From: Scenedesmus sp. PABB004
Lineage: Eukaryota
Assembly: GCA_014905635.1 (NCBI GenBank)
Contig: JABVCE010000002.1
Location: 744,001-808,000, forward strand
Reading direction: 5' to 3'
DNA: 64,000 bases
In this document: piece after piece, positions 13,351 to 59,607 of the stretch
Position numbering within the stretch: position 1 is the first letter of the stretch
How the letters are laid out: every line of letters starts with the position of its first letter
Notes under the pieces: model-generated
Told to the model about the DNA's origin: nothing
What the model saw: the letters and a program-made list of their open reading frames with translations, nothing else
Database searches by the model: none
Translations under genes and position numbers: made by a program

Positions 13351-15088
13351 TCAGCGCGCCGCTGCGGCGCTGCCTGCTCGCGCGGTCGCGAGCGCGGGCG
13401 GCGCGGCCTTGGCGCCGTGCTGGAACTGGCGCGTGATCGCCTTGGCCTTGGGGAGGTCCCACCACGGCGCGTAGGGCCAGCGGTGGTGCTCCTGCGCGCA
13501 CGCGCGGCGTCGGCGTCGGCGCACGCGCCCGCGCACGCGCTCGTGCACGCGCCGCCCGCGCGCCTGGCGCGCGCCGCAGCGGCGCGCCGCGCGTGCTGGC
13601 AGGCAGCGGCGCGGCCTCACCCAGTGCAGGCCAAAGTGGTAGCACTTGAGGAAGGTGAGCCACGCGGGGTCGTCGCTCGAGTGGCTGCGCTGCCAGTGCA
13701 TGACCTCGCCCGCGTCGGACGGCAGGTGCGGCAGGTAGCTGCGGCGGGCGCGAGGGCGCGCGGGCGCGCGGGCGCGCGGCGCGGGCGCGGGCGTGGGCGC
13801 GTGGGCGCGTGCCCCGCGCGTGCCGCGCGCGCGCGCCGCCAGCCAGCAGCGTGCCAGCGCCTGCCGCCCTCCCGCCGCGCTGGCGGCAGCACCAGCGAGC
13901 CCTCCCGGACGCCCCGAGTGCGCGCTCGTGCGCGCGAGCGCACGTTCCAAAGTAGAAGAGCCTGAAGGCGGCCAGGATGGGCGCGGCGGCCATGTAGACG
14001 CAGAGGTTGGCGTACGGCACGCCGCCGACGCGCTGGAGCAGGGTGGAGGCGAGGAAGATCTTGGCAAACTGCAGCAGCGTGGAGTACTCGAGCATGAACC
14101 TGCACGGGCGGGGGGGGGGAGGGCGAGAGCGGCAGGTCGGCCGGTGAGGGAGAGGGAGGACGGGTGAGGGAGAGGGAGGGCGGGCGGCGCACGCGGGCGG
14201 GCGGCAGCGCGGCGGCGGCGGGCGGCGGCGGCGGCGGCGCGCGCGCGCGGCGCGCGGCGGCACGCACTGCGCGAACCACACGGCGATGTGTGGGTTGCCG
14301 CGGTGGAAGTCGGGGTCGCGCCCCGGCTGGCCGGTGTGGTTGTGGTGGGCCCAGTGGTTGCGGTGCAGCATGTCGTAGTCAAACCTGCCGCGGCGGCGGC
14401 GCCCCGGCGCACGGCGGCGAGCGCGGCGGTGAGCGCGGCGGTGGCGGCCGGCGCGGCGTGCGGTGTGCGGCGTGCGGCGTGCGGCGGCGGCGCACCAGGC
14501 GTAGAGGCTGATCGCGACGCGCCCGATCGCGTCGTTCAGCGCCCGGCTGCGGTAGCAGACCGTGCCGTGCATCGCGTCGTGCGTGGTGATGAACAGCCCC
14601 GTCGCCACAAACTCGATTGCCAGGAACGTGCAGCTCACGTCGGCCCAGTGCGCCCAGCCCCACGGCGCGCCGCCCGGCGCGCGCGGCGTGAGCTGCACCT
14701 GCCAGTACGCGTGGTAGCACAGCGCGAGCCACGCAGCGATGAGCCCCAGCGCGATGGACACGCCCTTCACGTCGTCGCGCGGCGGCCTGCGTCGCCGCGC
14801 GGGCGGCGCGGCGGCGGCGGCGGCGCGCTCGCGCCAGGCCCGGCCGCCGACTCGCGCGGCGCCCGGCGCCGCGCGGCGCGTGCTCGCAGCCCCCCGGCCG
14901 CACTTGTAGAGGCCCTTGACCTCGGGCAGGCTGCCCTCGACGCGCTCGTCGGGCAGCGGGTACTGCTGCGCCCACTTGGCGACGGCGGCGACGGCAGCGT
15001 CGGCGTCGGCGGCGCCGCCCGGCGCGTCCGGCTGCCGCTGCGGCTGCGGCTGCTGGGTCGCCTCGCGCGGGGCGTCTACGGGCGCCAT
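13351..15088 (-). CDS. BKT: beta-carotene ketolase (CrtW-type), complete copy
   Basis: His boxes TGLFITTHDAMHG, HWAHHNHTG..DPDFHRGNP, CYHFGLHWEHHRWPYAPWW, plus AAAPILAAFRLFYFGTYLPH. Confidence 0.93.
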
Positions 15089-15414
15089 GGGGCCCAGCAG
15101 GGCGACGCCCGCGGCTGCCGGTCGCCGCAGCGACAGTCGTTGGCCGCTGCTGGCCACACGCGGTGCGGACGCCCCTGCGCCGCCCCGCAGCCGCTGCGAC
15201 TGCGCCCCCGGCAACGTGAAGCTGGCGTCGTCGGTCGGCGTGGCCGCCGCCCGGCGCGTGACGCGGGCTGCTCTGCCGGCGGGCGTGCGTGGGTGCGGCG
15301 TTGTCGGCGCACGGCGGCCGACGCTTCAGTGCGGGGGGCTCGTCTCGCCGGCTGCGCACCGCGCTTGCACTGGCTGCAGCGTTGCCGGCTCACCGTGCTG
15401 CCCGCGTCGGTGCG

Positions 15415-17126
15415 TCACGCGGCCGCAGCACCGCGCCTGGGACCCTCAACCCCGCCCGCGAGCGTCTCGTCCAGCAGCTCGGCGGCGGCGCCCAGCAGGC
15501 GCGCGCGCTCCAGCCGGTACGCCAGCGCCGCGCGCCGGCGCGGCGGCAGCCCGCCGCGCGCCAGCTCGGCCTCGTCGGCGGCGGCGCTCGCCGGCGCCGC
15601 GGCGAGCTGCGCGCGCACGTCGGCGAGCAGCCCTGTGGCTGCCGCGCGCGTGCTCGCGGCCGTCACTCGCCTGCGCTGCTCCAGGTTGCGCCAGCCCGCA
15701 GCGCAGAGCACCGACGCCAGCGCCGCGCCGACGCGCGCCGCGGCGGCGGCGTCGCCCGCGGCGTCGGCGCGCCGCCTCAGCCGCGCGGCGGCGGCCTTGG
15801 CGGGGCCGTGCGCCATCCAGGAGGCCGCCCCAGGTGCCTGCTGCTGCTGCTGCTGCTGCTGCGCAAAGGCCGCAAACTCAACGCGGTCGAGTGCGTTGCC
15901 TTGCAATGTGAAGCCATACTGCTCCATCAGTGCCCTGTGGCGGGGCAGAGGCGGCGGCGGCAGCGGCGGTGGCGGCGGGGACAAGGGAGGGGGTGCGCGT
16001 GTGGGGGTGGAGGGGGGGGGGCAGGCGCGCGCAGGGCGGGCGTCCCTCGCTCTCCGCCGCGCCGCCGCCGCACCGATTGTCCTTGTCGCCGTAGGTGATG
16101 AGCGCCTCACACAGCTCGCCGCCGCTGCCGCCGCCGCCGCTGCCGCCGCACCACGTGAGCGTGAAGGTGCCGTCCGCAGCGTCGACGCCATGCTGGCAGC
16201 ACGGCGCGCTCGCGTGGTTTGCGAGGTCGAGCACGGGCACGAGGCCGACGAGCGCCGCAGGCCCCGACGCAGCAGCGCCGCCGTCGCCCCGCGCGCGCAG
16301 CAGCCCCGGCGACGTCGCCTGGGGGGCGCGGTGTGGGCGGGGCCCGCGGCCGGTCAGCGCGCGGCCGGTCAGCGCGCGGCCGCGGCGCGGCGCAGCGTGC
16401 GGCGACGCGCTGGCAGCCCACAGCTTGGCGCACCCGGTCGACGCCGAACGCGCGGCTCTCCACCACCGCGACCGCCCACCGCCAGTGATCGAGGGTGCAG
16501 CCCAGGCACGGCGCGACCGCGGCGGCGTGCGCGTGCTGCACGGCGCGTTGCCACGCCGCCGCGGTCGCCGCGAGCGGTGGGTCGTGCAGCTCCGCCAGCT
16601 CGGCTTGCCGCCACAGCAGCAGCAAGGACAGCTGCTCCGCGCGCGGCAGCAGCGCCGTGAAGTCCCGCCAGAAGTCGCCGAGCGCGTCGCCGCGCGGCAG
16701 GCGGAGCGCCCAGACCAGCAGCGCCGCGACCTGGAGCTCCCACTCCGCGCACGCCGGGTGCGCCAGCAGGCGCGCCAGGCCGGCCGGTGCAGCAGCCGGC
16801 GCTCCCGGTGAGGCGCCCGGGATGGTGGTGCTGAGGACAAGGCGCAGCGGCACGGCGGCCAGCCGCGTCGCGCCGCCGCCGGCGTCGCCGTGCGGGCGCC
16901 GCCAGTGCAGGCCCTGGCCCCAGGGCCCCGCCACCACCTCGAGCGTGGGGTGGAGCGCGATGCCGTGCTCAGCGGCGATGGCGCGCAGCGTGGCCGTGCC
17001 CGGCGCGGCAGCGGCGGCGGCGGCGCGGCAGCGCGCCACCGGCTCGGCGGTGGGGCGCAGGCGTGCTGCAGATCGGAGCAGCATCTTCCTCAGAGGGGCA
17101 ATCGACCACTGGGCGCTGCGCGGCAT
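15415..17126 (-). CDS. SET-domain (Rubisco LSMT/SETD-like) lysine methyltransferase, copy 1
   Basis: GPWGQGL, WRWAVAVVESRAF, LVPVLDLANHAS, ALITYGDKDNRALMEQYGF. Confidence 0.82.
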
Positions 17127-17216
17127 CGGAGCAGCCCTGGGTGCGCGGCGGTTCGTCAAAGACGACGACGCAGCGTCGCGACCGGCATCCGCTCCAGCAC
17201 GTCGAGTCGACCGCGC

Positions 17217-17655
17217 GCGCGCGGCGCGGGCGCGGGCGTGGGCGCGTGGGCGCGTGCCCCGCGCGTGCCGCGCGCGCGCGCCGCCAGCCAGCAGCGTGCC
17301 AGCGCCTGCCGCCCTCCCGCCGCGCTGGCGGCAGCACCAGCGAGCCCTCCCGGACGCCCCGAGTGCGCGCTCGTGCGCGCGAGCGCACGTTCCAAAGTAG
17401 AAGAGCCTGAAGGCGGCCAGGATGGGCGCGGCGGCCATGTAGACGCAGAGGTTGGCGTACGGCACGCCGCCGACGCGCTGGAGCAGGGTGGAGGCGAGGA
17501 AGATCTTGGCAAACTGCAGCAGCGTGGAGTACTCGAGCATGAACCTGCACGGGCGGGGGAGGGGGGAGGGCGAGAGCGGCAGGTCGGCCGGTGAGGGAGA
17601 GGGAGGACGGGTGAGGGAGAGGGAGGGCGGGCGGCGCACGCGGGCGGGCGGCAGC

Positions 17656-17686
<31 letters not shown>

Positions 17687-18535
17687 GCGCGGCGGCGCGC
17701 GCGGCGGCACGCACTGCGCGAACCACACGGCGATGTGTGGGTTGCCGCGGTGGAAGTCGGGGTCGCGCCCCGGCTGGCCGGTGTGGTTGTGGTGGGCCCA
17801 GTGGTTGCGGTGCAGCATGTCGTAGTCAAACCTGCCGCGGCGGCGGCGCCCCGGCGCACGGCGGCGAGCGCGGCGGTGAGCGCGGCGGTGGCGGCCGGCG
17901 CGGCGTGCGGTGTGCGGCGTGCGGCGTGCGGCGGCGGCGCACCAGGCGTAGAGGCTGATCGCGACGCGCCCGATCGCGTCGTTCAGCGCCCGGCTGCGGT
18001 AGCAGACCGTGCCGTGCATCGCGTCGTGCGTGGTGATGAACAGCCCCGTCGCCACAAACTCGATTGCCAGGAACGTGCAGCTCACGTCGGCCCAGTGCGC
18101 CCAGCCCCACGGCGCGCCGCCCGGCGCGCGCGGCGTGAGCTGCACCTGCCAGTACGCGTGGTAGCACAGCGCGAGCCACGCAGCGATGAGCCCCAGCGCG
18201 ATGGACACGCCCTTCACGTCGTCGCGCGGCGGCCTGCGTCGCCGCGCGGGCGGCGCGGCGGCGGCGGCGGCGCGCTCGCGCCAGGCCCGGCCGCCGACTC
18301 GCGCGGCGCCCGGCGCCGCGCGGCGCGTGCTCGCAGCCCCCCGGCCGCACTTGTAGAGGCCCTTGACCTCGGGCAGGCTGCCCTCGACGCGCTCGTCGGG
18401 CAGCGGGTACTGCTGCGCCCACTTGGCGACGGCGGCGACGGCAGCGTCGGCGTCGGCGGCGCCGCCCGGCGCGTCCGGCTGCCGCTGCGGCTGCGGCTGC
18501 TGGGTCGCCTCGCGCGGGGCGTCTACGGGCGCCAT
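17217..18535 (-). pseudogene. BKT: 3'-truncated BKT copy lacking the last exons and third His box
   Basis: Identical to BKT through ..RLFYFGT, then the intron ends at the duplication junction. Confidence 0.85.
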
Positions 18536-18861
18536 GGGGCCCAGCAGGGCGACGCCCGCGGCTGCCGGTCGCCGCAGCGACAGTCGTTGGCCGCTGCTGG
18601 CCACACGCGGTGCGGACGCCCCTGCGCCGCCCCGCAGCCGCTGCGACTGCGCCCCCGGCAACGTGAAGCTGGCGTCGTCGGTCGGCGTGGCCGCCGCCCG
18701 GCGCGTGACGCGGGCTGCTCTGCCGGCGGGCGTGCGTGGGTGCGGCGTTGTCGGCGCACGGCGGCCGACGCTTCAGTGCGGGGGGCTCGTCTCGCCGGCT
18801 GCGCACCGCGCTTGCACTGGCTGCAGCGTTGCCGGCTCACCGTGCTGCCCGCGTCGGTGCG

Positions 18862-20571
18862 TCACGCGGCCGCAGCACCGCGCCTGGGACCCTCAACCCC
18901 GCCCGCGAGCGTCTCGTCCAGCAGCTCGGCGGCGGCGCCCAGCAGGCGCGCGCGCTCCAGCCGGTACGCCAGCGCCGCGCGCCGGCGCGGCGGCAGCCCG
19001 CCGCGCGCCAGCTCGGCCTCGTCGGCGGCGGCGCTCGCCGGCGCCGCGGCGAGCTGCGCGCGCACGTCGGCGAGCAGCCCTGTGGCTGCCGCGCGCGTGC
19101 TCGCGGCCGTCACTCGCCTGCGCTGCTCCAGGTTGCGCCAGCCCGCAGCGCAGAGCACCGACGCCAGCGCCGCGCCGACGCGCGCCGCGGCGGCGGCGTC
19201 GCCCGCGGCGTCGGCGCGCCGCCTCAGCCGCGCGGCGGCGGCCTTGGCGGGGCCGTGCGCCATCCAGGAGGCCGCCCCAGGTGCCTGCTGCTGCTGCTGC
19301 TGCTGCTGCGCAAAGGCCGCAAACTCAACGCGGTCGAGTGCGTTGCCTTGCAATGTGAAGCCATACTGCTCCATCAGTGCCCTGTGGCGGGGCAGAGGCG
19401 GCGGCGGCAGCGGCGGTGGCGGCGGGGACAAGGGAGGGGGTGCGCGTGTGGGGGTGGAGGGGGGGGCAGGCGCGCGCAGGGCGGGCGTCCCTCGCTCTCC
19501 GCCGCGCCGCCGCCGCACCGATTGTCCTTGTCGCCGTAGGTGATGAGCGCCTCACACAGCTCGCCGCCGCTGCCGCCGCCGCCGCTGCCGCCGCACCACG
19601 TGAGCGTGAAGGTGCCGTCCGCAGCGTCGACGCCATGCTGGCAGCACGGCGCGCTCGCGTGGTTTGCGAGGTCGAGCACGGGCACGAGGCCGACGAGCGC
19701 CGCAGGCCCCGACGCAGCAGCGCCGCCGTCGCCCCGCGCGCGCAGCAGCCCCGGCGACGTCGCCTGGGGGGCGCGGTGTGGGCGGGGCCCGCGGCCGGTC
19801 AGCGCGCGGCCGGTCAGCGCGCGGCCGCGGCGCGGCGCAGCGTGCGGCGACGCGCTGGCAGCCCACAGCTTGGCGCACCCGGTCGACGCCGAACGCGCGG
19901 CTCTCCACCACCGCGACCGCCCACCGCCAGTGATCGAGGGTGCAGCCCAGGCACGGCGCGACCGCGGCGGCGTGCGCGTGCTGCACGGCGCGTTGCCACG
20001 CCGCCGCGGTCGCCGCGAGCGGTGGGTCGTGCAGCTCCGCCAGCTCGGCTTGCCGCCACAGCAGCAGCAAGGACAGCTGCTCCGCGCGCGGCAGCAGCGC
20101 CGTGAAGTCCCGCCAGAAGTCGCCGAGCGCGTCGCCGCGCGGCAGGCGGAGCGCCCAGACCAGCAGCGCCGCGACCTGGAGCTCCCACTCCGCGCACGCC
20201 GGGTGCGCCAGCAGGCGCGCCAGGCCGGCCGGTGCAGCAGCCGGCGCTCCCGGTGAGGCGCCCGGGATGGTGGTGCTGAGGACAAGGCGCAGCGGCACGG
20301 CGGCCAGCCGCGTCGCGCCGCCGCCGGCGTCGCCGTGCGGGCGCCGCCAGTGCAGGCCCTGGCCCCAGGGCCCCGCCACCACCTCGAGCGTGGGGTGGAG
20401 CGCGATGCCGTGCTCAGCGGCGATGGCGCGCAGCGTGGCCGTGCCCGGCGCGGCAGCGGCGGCGGCGGCGCGGCAGCGCGCCACCGGCTCGGCGGTGGGG
20501 CGCAGGCGTGCTGCAGATCGGAGCAGCATCTTCCTCAGAGGGGCAATCGACCACTGGGCGCTGCGCGGCAT
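18862..20571 (-). CDS. SET-domain lysine methyltransferase, copy 2
   Basis: Duplicate of 15415-17126, retaining its native upstream region. Confidence 0.82.
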
Positions 20572-20777
20572 CGGAGCAGCCCTGGGTGCGCGGCGGTTCG
20601 TCAAAGACGACGACGCAGCGTCGCGACCGGCATCCGCTCCAGCACGTCGAGTCGACGCGCGCCCGCAGCAGTCTCCTCAGCTCGGGCGCCTTTCATCCGG
20701 CACCAGCGCCCGGCCCCACGTCGGGGCGCGCACGTCCGCGGCAGCAGGCAGCAGCAGCGCACGGGGCGGTGCCCCCC

Positions 20778-49850: not shown

Positions 49851-51651
49851 ATGACCTCCACGCGCCCTGGTGCTGCCTGGGTGGTGGCGGCGCTCCTCGT
49901 CGCGGCGGCCGCTGCGGCGAGCGAGCCAGCGCCGGCGGCGGGCGCGGCCGGCCTGGCGGAGCAGGCGGCGTCGGCGCTGGTCGCCGTCTTCGCCGTCACC
50001 CGCCACGGCGCGCGCAACGTGCTGCCCAAGTCGAGCACGCTCAAGGAGTCGGAGGCGACGGGCGGGCCGACGCTGCTGCCGCAGGGCGCGGCGCAGTGCG
50101 CCGCGGCGGGGCGGGCCTTCCGCGCGCGCTACCTGGCCGCCGGCAGCTGCGGCGCGGCCGGCACGTGCCTGCCGCCCGAGCGCGGCGCGGAGGCGTACGG
50201 CGTGCTCGGCGGTCCGGGCGTCGGCTTCCACAACTACAACACCTTTGCCGCCTCGTCGTCGCTCGACCGCACGCTCAAGTCGGCGGCGGCCTTCTGGGCG
50301 GTGCGGGCGCGCCGCGGGCGCGGGCGCGGGCGCGGCGGCCGCGCGGGCGCGCGCGGGGGAGCGCTCGCCCGCCCGACACCCGGCCGCCCGGGCGCCTCGT
50401 CGCCGCGCGCAGGGCGCGTTCCCGGCCGCCGCCGGCAACGCCTCCCAGCCCGCCCTCTCTGTGCCCGTGTACACGGACGGCGCCGACGTCGACGACTGGC
50501 GCGTGCGCGGCTACACCAAGTGCCCGTCGTACGCGCGGCGCCTCGAGAGCTGGCTGGGCAGCGCCGAGTTCAGGGCCAAGGAGGAGGACACCGCGTCGCT
50601 CAGGGCGGCGGTGCAGGCGCTCGCGCCGCAGCTCAACACATCGCTCGCCAACTGGTGGAACGTCTACGACGCCTTCAACGTGTGGCGCACCTTTGGCGTC
50701 GGCGACGCGCAGCCGGCCATGGACGACGCGACGTTCAACCAGGTGCGCGGCGCAGTTCCCACCAGGGTGGGAGCTGCGCGTGCGGCCAGGCGCGGCTGCC
50801 CGCCCGCCCGCCCGCCACGCTGCGCCCGGCCACGCCGCCGGCGCCGGACCCACCGGCGCGCCGCCCGTCTGCTGCGCGCGCAGACCGTGGAGCTGGCGAT
50901 GTGGCTGGAGACGCGCAAGATGCGCCCCGCGCTCGCGGGCAGCCTGCTGGGCGGCGCGCTGCTCGCCGACCTGCTGTCGCGCCTGCAGGCCGCGGCGGCC
51001 GCGGCGGGCGGCGGCGGCGGCAGCTACTACCGCCTGCTGGGCGTCAGCGCGCACTACAACACGCAGCTCGGGCTGCTCGCCGCCCTGCAGCAGGGCGGTG
51101 CGGCGCCGCTCGGCGCGCCCTACCCCTGGGAGGCGCGCATCCCCGCGCTCGCGGCGGTGCTCGCGTTTGAGCTGCACGCGCTCCCGCGCGGCGCCGGCTT
51201 TGCCGTGCGCGCCGTCGCGCAGGACGGGCCGGCGCGCGACTACGTGGCGCTGGCGCTGCCGTGCGCCGAGGCCGGCGGCGCGGCCGAGGCCGCGCTCGGC
51301 GCGGGCGCGTGCTCGCTCGACGCGTTTGCGCGCCTCGCCGGCCCCCAGGCGTTCAGCGCCGCGGGCGACTGGTGCGCGGCGTGCGACAACGACGACGTGC
51401 TCGCGTGCCGCCTGTCGCGCGCGGAGCGTCTGCTCGCCGAGGCGCCGGGGCCCGGCGGCGGCGCCGGGGGCGGCGGGGCCGGCGCGCGGCGCGGCGGCGC
51501 CGTCGCGCCTGGCATGGTCGCGCTCTGGTGCGTGGTGGCGGTCGCTCTCGCCGCCGCGCTGGCCGGCGGCGCGCTGCTCGTGGCGCGCCGCGCGCGCGCG
51601 AGCCGCGAGCGGCGCTGGGCGGCCGAGACCGTGGCGTCCGGGCTGGCGTGA
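49851..51651 (+). CDS. histidine acid phosphatase (branch 2), signal peptide and C-terminal TM
   Basis: VTRHGARN, SSSLDRTLKSA, SAHYNT. Confidence 0.82.
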
Positions 51652-52299
51652 TGGGCGGGCCGTATGCTTATGATAAATTCGGTGCATCACGGCAGCTACG
51701 GACGTAGCTTTGCCGCTGGCCCCGGGGGCCCGGAGGGCCGGCGACAGGTGCTGACACCGGGGCACGCGCCTTGAGTCTCCTGTACGTCCGGGTTGCTGGG
51801 TGTTCTGCGATGCCAACAAGCGGCTGGACAGCCGCGGCGAGGAGGCCTTTGAAGGCTCAGATGAAGCCTCGGGTGCGTTCACACGCGGCGAGCGCCGTCA
51901 CTGTGGGTTTTGTCGGGCGCAAGGGCTTTGCGCGCACAACCGCACGGCGTGCCGCGGTGGGCTTGGGATTGCAGCTTCACATTGGCAATCACAGTTTGCG
52001 CCGAGCTCTCGAGCCGCAGCGAGGCCGCGAGCACCTGCGGCGACGCTCAGCTCGGGCGGCAGCAGCACTCGCCCGCTGCCGTCGCTCCTGCTTCTGCAAG
52101 TTCCGATTGAGTCGCCAGGATGCTCGCGCGCACGGCCGCTGGCGCAGGGACAGGGGGCGGAGCGCTGAGGAGGCCGACCGCACCGCGCGCCGCTGCTGCT
52201 GCTGCTGGCGCCCCCGGCAGCTGGCCCCGGAGTCGGGCGCTGCGCCCGGCGGTCCTTTCCGACGACGCCCCTCCCGCAGCACGGCCGGCCCAGCCCTGC
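51412..52299 (+). repeat. 888-bp segment duplicated at 58720-59607
   Basis: Offset 7308; at least two substitutions between copies. Confidence 0.95.
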
Positions 52300-56279: not shown

Positions 56280-56645
56280 CGCGATCGCTGCGCGCGCTGG
56301 CGGGCGCTGGCGGGCGCGAGGCGGGCGCGGCGCGGCCGGGGGCGCGGAGGGCTGCAGCGCGCGGGCGCGCCGAGCTGTGGGGCGATTCAGCGCGCGCTCG
56401 GGAACCGCCGCAGGGCGTGCTCCCCGGCCTCGCTACCGCCGTGGGAGCGCCGGCCGGTGGTCTCAACACCGGCGGCTGGGGGGATGGGGGCTGCCGGGGC
56501 GCCCCGGGGGGGCGCCCCGACGCCGCGGGCGCGCGGCGCGCGTGCGCGGCGCTGCCACCGCCGCGCGCGCGCGCCGCCGCCGCCAACACCGACCATGGGC
56601 AGCCTATCAACGCCGGCCGCCTGAAACAGGCCACAGCGGCGTGAG

Positions 56646-56837
56646 GCATGACGGTTTGGGACCGGCCTGTCGGTCGGTGCCCCCGCGAGAGGGGGTCCCC
56701 CCCACCCGGAACGGGTGGCCATGCGAGAAACACACGCGTACACGCCTGACCTAATTTGGCAACACACAACACACAACAGCAAGAGGCCTTTTAACGTCCT
56801 GCCCAGGACGGAGAGCGCAGCGCACCGCACACGCCGC
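56646..56837 (-). ncRNA. candidate Fanzor omegaRNA / structured element end
   Basis: Four short hairpins plus a closing helix directly 3' of the Fanzor stop codon; function inferred from position. Confidence 0.4.
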
Positions 56838-58557
56838 TCACGCCGGGGGGCCCACCGCGGCGGCGGCCGCCTGCCGGAACGCGCCGGCGAGGCGCGCGCC
56901 GCCGGCCGTGCCTCGGCCGCCGGGCAGCAACTCGTGCAGGGTCAGCGCGCAGATGTTGCGCGCCGCGTTGTCGTCGCGCGGCGCGACGACCGTGCACCCG
57001 GGGCACTGCATCAGACCGTAAATGCCCCGCAGCTTCTCCATGCGCGACGCGCACACCGAGCAGGTGACGCTCGTGCGGTGCTCGTCCATGAGCACCGCGG
57101 CGACGCGCCGGCGCGCATAATAAGTGCGCAGCAGCGCCAGCAGCGCCTGCCGCGGCGGCCCCGGCCCCGAGATGCAGCCCCCCATGCCCAGGCTGGCGTC
57201 CCCGATGCCCAGCACCACCGCGGGCAGGTCGGCGGGCAGGCGCGCGTGCGGCCGGACGCGCCCGCGCACAAAGACCCGGCCGTATGCAGTCAACTGAATC
57301 ACGGCATGCAGCGCGCGCTGCTTCAGCCCGTGCTTCCGCAGCCGCCACGCGCACTCTGCACGGCACGCAAGCAAGCTATATGCGAATGCATTGTCCAACA
57401 CATGATGCACCCGGCCGTTGCGCCACGCGGCGGCGGCGGCGACGCTCGTGCCCGAGTAGGCAGGCACACGGTTCAGGCAGGCATGCACGCAGTCGCCGCC
57501 GCCGGGCGGGCGGCGGTCGTACCGCCCCGGCCGCCCCGGCCGCCCCCCCTGCCAAAGCCGGTGCCGCTCGATCCCGCGCGCGTCGCGGTGTGCGGCGGTC
57601 TTTATTCTTTTTATGCTCTCAGCCTCGGCCGCCGCTACGAGGCTGAGAGCATTATAAGAATAAAGACCGCCGCCCGCCGTGGTCGCCGCGGTGGCGCGGC
57701 GCGTTGGGGCAGCGCCGCTGCGCGATGCGGCGGTGCGCGACGCGCGTGCAGCCGGGGCCCTGCCGCCAAGTCGCGGCACAAACCATGCGGGCCCGGCCCG
57801 GGTCGATTCCGACGACGCGCACGCCCGCGTGCACGGCCGCGGCCGCGCCGCGCAGCGCGTGCCCCGGCGGCAGGCCCTCCACGCCGCGCAGCTCGCACGG
57901 GTCGAGCGGCAGCGCGTCGAGCGCCGCCTCGTCGGCCACGCCGTGCGGCGCCAGCGCGTCGCAGAGCAGCCGCCGCGCTGCCGCCGCGCCCGCGCGGTGC
58001 TCTGCCGCGCGCTGCGCCGCCTTGGCGGCGCGCGACTGCTGGCCGCGGCGCGGGGCGGGGTCGGCGGCGCCCTCAACGCGCACGCGCACGTGCAGCGCTC
58101 TTGCTCCGCCTGCTGCGCGATCGGGCGGGGCGCCGCGATCGGGCACTTTCTCTTTGAGTGCGGCGCGCCCGGCCGCCCTGCACGCCTCGTTGCGCTGCTT
58201 GCGGACCTCCGTGCCAGCGGCGGGGGCGCGCATGCTGGCGCGCTGGCTGCGCACCTGCGTGCGGCTGGTGTTGAGATGGCGGCTAGCGGCAGCCAGGAGC
58301 TGGAGGCTGGAGCTGGCGGCGGCGGCAGCGGCAGCGTCAGCGACCCCGGCGTCGTGGCTAGCGCGGCGGCCCCTCGGGCTGCTGACGCAGGCGCGGCGGT
58401 CAGCATCAGCGATAGCGGCGTCACGGCTGATACGGCGGCCCCTCGGGCTGATGATGTCAGCGCGGCGGTCAGCGTCAGCAGCGTCTCTGCTGGTGCGGCG
58501 GCCCCTCGGGCTGCCGTTACCGGCGCGGCGAGTCGGTGTGCAGCACTGGAGCAGGCG
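56838..58557 (-). mobile_element. Fanzor1/TnpB-family RNA-guided RuvC nuclease gene, interrupted by a palindrome and 5'-truncated
   Basis: RuvC-I VRVVGIDPGR; VVLGIGD; RuvC-II MDEHRTSVTCSVC; CPGC; RuvC-III RDDNAARNI. Confidence 0.88.
57592..57673. repeat. 82-bp AT-rich inverted repeat (36-bp arms, 2 mismatches, 10-nt loop)
   Basis: gcggcggtctttattctttttatgctctcagcctcg-gccgccgcta-cgaggctgagagcattataagaataaagaccgccgc. Confidence 0.95.
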
Positions 58558-58720
58558 TTATCTGCTTGGTGACCTGCTGCAGGATCAGCTTGCTGTTCAC
58601 TCTGTGGCAGATTATGTGATGGACATCTGGAAGATGCGGGACACCGTCCTTAAGGGGCGCGGGACCAATGGGCGCGAGCCTGTGGTGTAACTATCTTTAT
58701 CTTTATCTTTATCTTTTATC
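58535..58720 (+). mobile_element. 5'-truncated non-LTR retrotransposon 3' end with (TATCTT)n tail
   Basis: Lower-GC stretch encoding ..LLGDLLQDQLAVHSVADYVMDIWKMRDTVL..* ending in TGTAA, directly followed by ~5 TATCTT units. Confidence 0.55.
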
Positions 58721-59607
58721 TGTCGCGCGCGGAGCGTCTGCTCGCCGAGGCGCCGGGGCCCGGCGGCGGCGCCGGGGGCGGCGGGGCCGGCGCGCGGCGC
58801 GGCGGCGCCGTCGCGCCTGGCATGGTCGCGCTCTGGTGCGTGGTGGCGGTCGCTCTCGCCGCCGCGCTGGCCGGCGGCGCGCTGCTCGTGGCGCGCCGCG
58901 CGCGCGCGAGCCGCGAGCGGCGCTGGGCGGCCGAGACCGTGGCGTCCGGGCTGGCGTGATGGGCGGGCCGTATGCTTATGATAAATTCGGTGCATCACGG
59001 CAGCTACGGACGTAGCTTTGCCGCTGGCCCCGGGGGCCCGGAGGGCCGGCGACAGGTGCTGACACCGGGGCACGCGCCTTGAGTCTCCTGTACGTCCGGG
59101 TTGCTGGGTGTTCTGCGATGCCAACAAGCGGCTGGACAGCCGCGGCGAGGAGGCCTTTGAAGGCTCAGATGAAGCCTCGGGTGCGTTCACACGCGGCGAG
59201 CGCCGTCACTGTGGGTTTTGTCGGGCGCAAGGGCTTTGCGCGCACAACCGCACGGCGTGCCGCGGTGGGCTTGGGATTGCAGCTTCACATTGGCAATCAC
59301 AGTTTGCGCCGAGCTCTCGAGCCGCAGCGAGGCCGCGAGCACCTGCGGCGACGCTCAGCTCGGGCGGCAGCAGCACTCGCCCGCTGCCGTCGCTCCTGCT
59401 TCTGCAAGTTCCGATTGAGTCGCCAGGATGCTCGTGCGCACGGCCGCTGGCGCAGGGACAGGGGGCGGAGCGCTGAGGAGGCCGACCGCGCCGCGCGCCG
59501 CTGCTGCTGCTGCTGGCGCCCCCGGCAGCTGGCCCCGGAGTCGGGCGCTGCGCCCGGCGGTCCTTTCCGACGACGCCCCTCCCGCAGCACGGCCGGCCCA
59601 GCCCTGC
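58720..59607 (+). pseudogene. duplicated fragment: phosphatase 3' end, intergenic region and DedA 5' end
   Basis: Copy of 51412-52299. Confidence 0.9.

Follow-up and report, generated by a model that had tools for sequence, protein, structure and literature searches.

A probable decayed, 5′-truncated member of a multi-copy Fanzor1 family between two host genes of Scenedesmus sp. PABB004

Genomic setting and features of the locus

The window analyzed here is a 64,000-nucleotide stretch of the Scenedesmus sp. PABB004 assembly (contig JABVCE010000002.1), and all coordinates are counted from its first letter. Its G+C content is 78.7%, and stop-free frames of 200 to 1000 codons run nearly everywhere on both strands (219 ORFs of at least 200 aa); since this extreme G+C content itself produces long open frames, ORF length alone is meaningless as evidence in this window. 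Pfam scans of stop-to-stop ORFs identified the host genes, which around the locus comprise a fatty-acid desaturase, an FGGY sugar kinase, ERO1, a VTT-domain protein, and a cytidylate kinase and, further left in the window, a RING-finger protein, WSC, an aldo/keto reductase, a class II tRNA synthetase, SDR, and DOT1. Between the desaturase and kinase genes lie minus-strand sequences related to Fanzor1, a eukaryotic homologue of TnpB with a single RuvC nuclease domain that is split by a zinc-ribbon TNB domain. The Fanzor1 members tested so far are guide-RNA-directed DNA endonucleases. The features to which the text refers are the following, where siblings are the related entries of a published catalogue described below.

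54.4-56.4 kb, minus strand: fatty-acid desaturase (Pfam)
56606..56837, minus strand: 3′ flank of the ORF, which metagenome contigs also carry (about 95% identity, small indels)
56841..57627, minus strand: coding part of frame B, with its stop codon at 56838-56840; runs from palindrome arm 2 ('EAESIKRIKTAAHRDARG') through WRLRKHGLKQRAL, VVLGIGD, the Glu, and the zinc ribbon to the RuvC-III Asp
57294..57783, minus strand: "intron" of the published gene model, 490 nt with GT..AG borders, joining GRARM to LTAYG and dropping the broken stretch and about 150 codons
57586..57627, minus strand: palindrome arm 2, the genuine coding segment as a direct copy
57628..57679, no strand assigned: palindrome arm 1 plus loop, the siblings' segment '...RRYEAESIIRIKTAA' in inverted orientation
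57680..58098, minus strand: coding part of frame A common to the siblings, from 'ALHVRVRVEG' to '...PRHRGDHG', including RuvC-I
58099..58233, minus strand: upstream stretch with the ATG of the published model, with no counterpart in the siblings' N-terminal sequence
59.3-61.6 kb, minus strand: FGGY sugar kinase (Pfam)

Motif content and catalytic residues

The motifs are split over two frames, A (57652-58557) and B (56838-58649). RuvC-I reads VRVVGIDPG in frame A (VVGIDPG at 57816-57796, minus strand), with its Asp codon at 57802-57804. Frame B harbors, all on the minus strand, AWRLRKHGLKQRAL (57350-57309), a helical bridge corresponding to WRLRKHGLKQRAL, VVLGIGD (57218-57198), DEHRTS (57086-57069; Glu codon 57081-57083), a C4 zinc ribbon composed of CSVC (57062-57051) and CPGC (57005-56994), and RuvC-III RDDNAARNI (56978-56952; first Asp 56973-56975). 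Every one of these motifs was re-found where the first-pass annotation of this DNA had put it, and the ATG at 58233 and the frame that stays open up to 58557 are likewise as it stated. Fanzors have Gly or Pro where the canonical RuvC-II Glu would stand and use a conserved, alternative Glu about 45 residues downstream, which is described as essential in the mimivirus enzyme (PMC10530073). Here, a Gly (57207-57209) occupies the canonical RuvC-II place in VVLGIGD and a Glu (57081-57083) follows 42 residues downstream; the DEHRTS Glu is therefore the alternative one and VVLGIGD the vacated canonical site. Asp, alternative Glu, and Asp are thus retained in the Fanzor arrangement. The superfamily motif given by Bao and Jurka (2013, PMC3627910), D-X(125,275)-[TS][TS]-X-X-[C4 zinc finger]-X(5,50)-RD, is also present, though across two reading frames, as TS-VT-CSVC...CPGC-TVVAP-RD, with 230 residues between D (57802-57804) and TS (57074-57069) when a net gain of 40 nt (see below) is discounted.

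Profile searches point the same way as the first-pass annotation, which had named TnpB/Fanzor as the family. The C-terminal frame matches Pfam PF07282 (Cas12f1-like TNB) above its cut-off (E 2.4e-9, 37.7 bits versus 26.3), and frame B matches a family profile, built from eight homologues with the window sequence excluded, at E 3.3e-40. Of 818 window ORFs, frame A ranks second against this profile (E 8.5e-4), mostly from its RuvC-I strand, and the pattern [LIV]R[LIV]x[GA][IV]DPG occurs once in the six window frames and not at all in 100 shuffles. The motif set of the locus is far beyond chance. The G+C content of frame B is 0.80 to 0.98 at third codon positions versus 0.50 to 0.68 at second positions, and in frame A, third positions reach 0.92 to 0.96 with coding-like periodicity up to about 58300; the coding part of frame B is supported by the two profile matches, the homologue alignment, and GC periodicity. 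Judged from its sequence, the locus is supported as a TnpB/Fanzor homologue, probably of the Fanzor1 kind, that retains its three catalytic residues and C4 zinc ribbon.

Distant relatives and solved structures

A HMMER search of 1.84 billion representatives returned 35 proteins at E ≤ 1e-3, two of them at E ≤ 1e-10, with the top relative (627 aa) 38% identical. The named members derive from the green algae Monoraphidium minutum and Raphidocelis subcapitata, and the remainder are metagenome proteins. The window and the full-length relatives have in common the blocks R.WRLR.H.L..R.FHR..Q, KP...V.G.G.AS.G.GG.ISR, VDEHRTSKVCSRC, and VVDRDVNAARNI; the full-length relatives also carry an N-terminal 'FAGHxxTDG' block some 100 to 250 residues ahead of RuvC-I. 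A separate homologous-protein search gave one match in the "near" length class, none in the "longer" class, and three with an alignment as query, probably because low-complexity words crowd relatives out of that search. A related-locus search with a single-protein query retrieved 18 metagenome loci, all distant (29-55% over short segments), and one viral locus (37%); these are too distant to define the ends of an element.

Among solved chains, the family profile matches the mimivirus Fanzor2 L79 (PDB 9b0l; E 7.8e-5) and the Spizellomyces punctatus Fanzor1 (PDB 8gkh; E 3.4e-4 over three stretches), in one of which the N-terminal block ('F.G.I.TDG') pairs with 'FEGSITTDGASVSV' at a domain E of 1.5. 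Other chains matched by the profile are the Parasitella and Guillardia Fanzor1 proteins, TnpB, and Cas12f. With the window fragment alone as query, the best single-sequence PDB match is L79 (E 0.006). AlphaFold gave a low-confidence model for the 270-aa fragment (mean pLDDT 59.3). In Foldseek, nearly all hits of this weak model are Cas12f, Cas12 variants, TnpB, or Fanzor, but with TM-scores of only 0.2 to 0.3 and just one hit at E ≤ 1e-3. Both 8gkh and 9b0l have in common with the window copy the RuvC-II/zinc ribbon/RuvC-III block 'vDE.rTS..C..C...RD.NAA.NI', but the fragment model is distant from either, with 14% identity to 8gkh over 260 aligned columns and 30% to 9b0l over 67. Furthermore, 8gkh and 9b0l hold guide RNA with the WED/REC half, whereas the window copy is without that half.

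Catalogue entry and sibling copies

Data S1 of Jiang et al. (2023, Sci Adv, PMC10530073) consists of 3,655 rows of identifier, family label, and protein, which we searched by text matches to five family peptides, with cells of more than 400 characters covered in part. The window locus corresponds to the entry "Fanzor50_3134, family1". Compared by eye, residue for residue, the first piece of this entry is frame A from the ATG at 58233 to '...GIDPGRARM', and the second is frame B from 'LTAYGRVF...' to '...AVGPPA'. The locus is therefore already known from a published Fanzor catalogue and is real but ordinary; Fanzor1 genes of green algae have been described before, and as a discovery it matters little. 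The matches comprise 12 further sibling entries (1891, 1894, 1896, 1897, 1898, 1901, 1902, 2628, 3137, 3138, 3139, and 3142), labeled family1 or unclassified, some of which look like an ORF and a gene-model rendering of one locus. The siblings and the window copy have the whole C-terminal two thirds in common with few substitutions, and by eye the frame A part is nearly residue for residue the same. At the junction that interrupts the window frame the siblings are read without a break, and those of 676 to 801 aa also have the N-terminal half; the window copy shows neither feature.

In the rows of Data S1 so matched, the label family5 goes with entries of the mimivirus L79 type (Fanzor2), so that family1 is not the Fanzor2 clade. 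The assignment to Fanzor1 draws on the catalogue label family1 and on the FAGHxxTDG block of the homologues, which aligns with the Spizellomyces Fanzor1 at a domain E of 1.5 and belongs to a region absent from the window copy. Another copy is a hypothetical protein of Scenedesmus sp. PABB004 with 94% identity across the final 87 aligned residues; its gene model fuses it to an unrelated OB-fold gene, absent from the window. The different gene context of this copy and the sibling entries together indicate a multi-copy family in different contexts. In the Scenedesmus protein HT031_003426, the last 115 residues of a sibling Fanzor copy are joined to an OB-fold protein (precomputed Pfam PF21473), which is probably a read-through gene model over a truncated copy and a neighboring gene.

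A palindrome at the frame break

The two frames meet at a palindrome with arms at 57586-57627 and 57638-57679 (42 nt each, 90% complementary) and a loop of 10 nt. Arm 2 encodes 'EAESIKRIKTAAHR', including the conserved strand 'ESIKRIKTAAH', and when the plus strand of 57630-57673 is attached behind 57676, its in-frame translation is GDHGRRYEAESIIRIKTA, exactly the siblings' peptide. Seven siblings read straight through this junction as '...PRHRGDHGR[RH]YEAE[SR]I[IT]RIKTAAHRDARG...', with the junction strand 'HGR[RH]YEAE[SR]I[IT]RIKTAAH'. The window therefore holds an inverted coding segment of about 46 nt, behind which its 42-nt core stands once more as a direct copy. The sequence is lengthened by a net 40 nt (1 modulo 3), which shifts the frame onto the TAA at 57652-57654, where frame A ends. 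A replication template switch with two jumps would yield exactly such an inverted-then-direct layout, and the rearrangement would be best explained by a two-step event of this kind. The break is a neat natural case of a small inverted-duplication mutation, of the template-switch type, inside coding sequence.

The first-pass annotation had treated the palindrome as an insert to be removed before joining the frames. Deleting all 94 nt does restore the frame, but this is the wrong repair, since arm 2 is coding and encodes a conserved strand and arm 1 with the loop is the same segment inverted. Other identities proposed for the palindrome were discarded. A MITE is at odds with the arm motifs, which occur nowhere else in the window, and with both arms encoding the sibling peptide; for a short intron, GT..AG pairs spanning 52 or 61 nt can be picked out by eye, but the siblings show a coding segment there. 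Rfam hits to mir-3524 (25 versus 99 bits) and SCARNA17 (22.4 versus 75 bits) lie far below their gathering scores and are hairpin noise.

The 5′ end of the copy

Six catalogue entries contain the block 'FAGSVTFD', and all six read '...GYDP[IV]WD[AS]YF.FGRRPGRARGVLHANTRFAGSVTFDLAALHVRVRVEG...'; four long ones among them, of 676 to 801 aa, reach well past the block toward the N terminus. The long siblings continue for about 350 residues upstream, whereas the window matches siblings only from 'ALHVRVRVEG' (58098) onward. At this boundary, the siblings read '...TRFAGSVTFDLA' and the window reads '...PDRAAGGAR', each followed by 'ALHVRV'. The N-terminal part of the family profile finds no match in any window ORF; tblastn of the 35 homologues against the window gave no N-terminal match with the complexity filter on and, unfiltered, only noise outside the locus. 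The Fanzor-derived DNA, as read from these alignments, is truncated at its 5′ end at about 58098/58099. Because the window leaves the siblings at 58098, this is a 5′-truncated copy and the ATG at 58233 is not the family's start codon. The earlier suspicion that the WED/REC part is lost or highly divergent is borne out by the absence of the roughly 350-residue N-terminal part of the full-length siblings; the earlier reading of 58233 to 58099 as Fanzor coding sequence does not survive, as nothing in the siblings corresponds to this stretch.

At 58328-58514, immediately upstream of the Fanzor-derived part, a 69-nt unit is repeated in tandem 2.8 times (78% matches). This repeat falls inside the open frames that had been counted as possible N-terminal coding sequence; with its flat GC periodicity, the stretch is probably not coding.

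Metagenome contigs and substitution pattern

We compared the locus with Logan contigs of four runs from four studies, out of 17 runs matched, none of which is recorded as RNA; the contigs are short, and many of the pieces are chance GC-rich matches. A contig of run X5 matches 57804-57676 with one mismatch and then continues into the plus strand of 57630-57673, and in run X8 the match between contigs and window breaks off at exactly 57676 and 57627. The sibling arrangement fits the contigs of both runs, and among the contig pieces listed none spans 57628-57675. As these contigs may derive from paralogues, they do not thereby show the window arrangement to be an assembly error. An apparent end of homology at 56606-56611 was considered as an element end, and depth differences (e.g., 565 at 58561-58701 in run X6) as evidence of copy number or element ends; both were dropped given the short contigs and chance GC-rich matches.

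Within the ORF part at 56841-57590, 17 of the 30 listed differences from metagenome contigs are synonymous, versus 28% expected (binomial p ≈ 0.0009). The 30 come from 40 listed rows, from which nine in the 3′ flank and one upstream were left out; 25 further differences lie outside the listed rows, and the differences may come from paralogues. The bias suggests either that decay is recent or that selection acts on the family. It fits a family under protein-level selection while spreading and says little about the window copy.

Interpretation of the locus

On this evidence, we consider it about 80% probable that the locus is a decayed, front-truncated, and frame-broken member of a multi-copy Fanzor1 family. 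What remains extends from mid-protein ('ALHVRVRVEG', 58098) to the stop (56838), together with the conserved 3′ flank. The first-pass annotation had proposed an OMEGA locus with an intact nuclease, a claim that we abandon: the copy is 5′-truncated relative to full-length siblings, its frame is broken onto the TAA at 57652-57654, and no uninterrupted ORF that includes the WED/REC half is found. As the N-terminal WED/REC half, which binds guide RNA and target, is absent and no single polypeptide is encoded, the locus would be unable to work as an autonomous RNA-guided nuclease, and any activity of the family would rest with its full-length siblings. Against decay stand the coding-like GC periodicity of both parts, the synonymous bias among the ORF differences, and the spliced 303-aa model of the catalogue, which keeps D, E, and D.

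That model raises the alternative of an expressed, shortened gene that starts at the ATG at 58233, removes the 490-nt intron, and yields a 303-aa protein with some function as a minimal RuvC protein. The GT..AG borders are present, the splice restores the frame, the model as it stands in Data S1 of PMC10530073 retains RuvC-I, the alternative Glu, the zinc ribbon, and RuvC-III, and coding-like GC periodicity continues to about 58300. The "intron", however, removes some 150 codons that are family-aligned and coding-like, the N-terminal 45 residues are without a sibling counterpart, and the model comes from automatic gene prediction, as the Methods of PMC10530073 describe it. We regard a functional short gene as very unlikely; the catalogued 303-aa model is probably what gene prediction salvaged from a broken, truncated copy and is unsuitable as a candidate "mini" nuclease. 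The members worth testing are the full-length siblings of 676 to 801 aa. The inverted segment could also be an assembly or sequencing artefact, in which case the real ORF would run unbroken from 58098, or from further upstream, to 56841, and the gene would still be 5′-truncated. Contigs in two of the four runs (X5 and X8, from different studies) carry the sibling arrangement and leave the window at 57676 and 57627, those of X5 being otherwise within 0 to 1 mismatch of the window; but they may be paralogous siblings, nearly identical in this region, and the palindrome arms differ at 4 of 42 positions, with arm 2 carrying a "SIK" variant of its own. Such differences look like real sequence that has diverged since the event rather than a fold-back read, and an artefact is in our view unlikely. 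Finally, the bias of the differences toward synonymous changes could be taken to indicate a domesticated host gene, kept by selection between the desaturase and sugar-kinase genes, but the family has several copies, siblings stand in other contexts, and this copy has lost both its front and its continuous frame, which leaves domestication scarcely credible. We therefore retain the decayed family member as the preferred reading.

The 3′ flank and a possible carrier

The 3′ flank is covered by contigs of runs X1 (56611-56849) and X6 (56689-56875). The Fanzor fRNA is described as extending downstream of the ORF (PMC10530073), and the guide RNA would accordingly be expected in this flank. The RNA fold of the flank as a single sequence is no better than that of shuffled sequence (z-score -0.76), and an Rfam search of the flank gave no family match. 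The desaturase gene starts about 300 bp beyond the 3′ non-coding end. There is a slim chance that this end, by the desaturase promoter region, could yield a guide RNA in trans for a full-length sibling nuclease; if so, the "dead" copy would still direct cutting or binding at a site set by its own flank.

No transposase, Rep, or helicase domain was found by Pfam in 90 ORFs of at least 150 aa (43.4-64 kb) and 107 ORFs of at least 260 aa (0-43 kb), a scan that short exons would escape; within these ORFs, the first-pass statement that the window lacks a transposase is borne out. The nearest described parallels, set side by side from their descriptions, are the Chlamydomonas reinhardtii elements CRe-1, CRe-2, and CRe-3 (CrFNuc in PMC10530073), which like the window family are green-algal, multi-copy Fanzor1 and which are borne in Helitron2 (Bao and Jurka 2013, PMC3627910). 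Chlamydomonas Fanzor1 copies are described as often 5′-truncated with an intact 3′ end (PMC3627910), and the 5′ truncation of the window copy follows that pattern. For the window copy, no Helitron ends, TTTT target, target-site duplication, or other sign of a carrier transposon could be made out, and its homologous part has no evident introns.

Other repeats in the window

The stretch at 58577-58690 has a lower G+C content and a CCAAT-like palindrome. Run X6, a freshwater metagenome, covers it with a 114-nt contig at a depth of 297 (summed bin depth 565), and neighboring host genes in the same run have depths of 2 to 4; the stretch may be a high-copy repeat, a summed contig depth not being a copy number. 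Far to the left lies a tandem duplication of about 3.46 kb (13767-17222 and 17212-20666; 99.7% identity), and no Pfam domains were found in its long ORFs. An 888-bp direct repeat (51412-52299 and 58720-59607) is 99.8% identical, with two differences. Its copies bracket 6.4 kb that contain the VTT-domain gene, the desaturase gene, and the Fanzor relic, and the second copy begins right after a (TATCTT)n microsatellite (58692-58721). The repeat may have arisen by segmental duplication or as a repeated element, or it may be an artefact of assembly.
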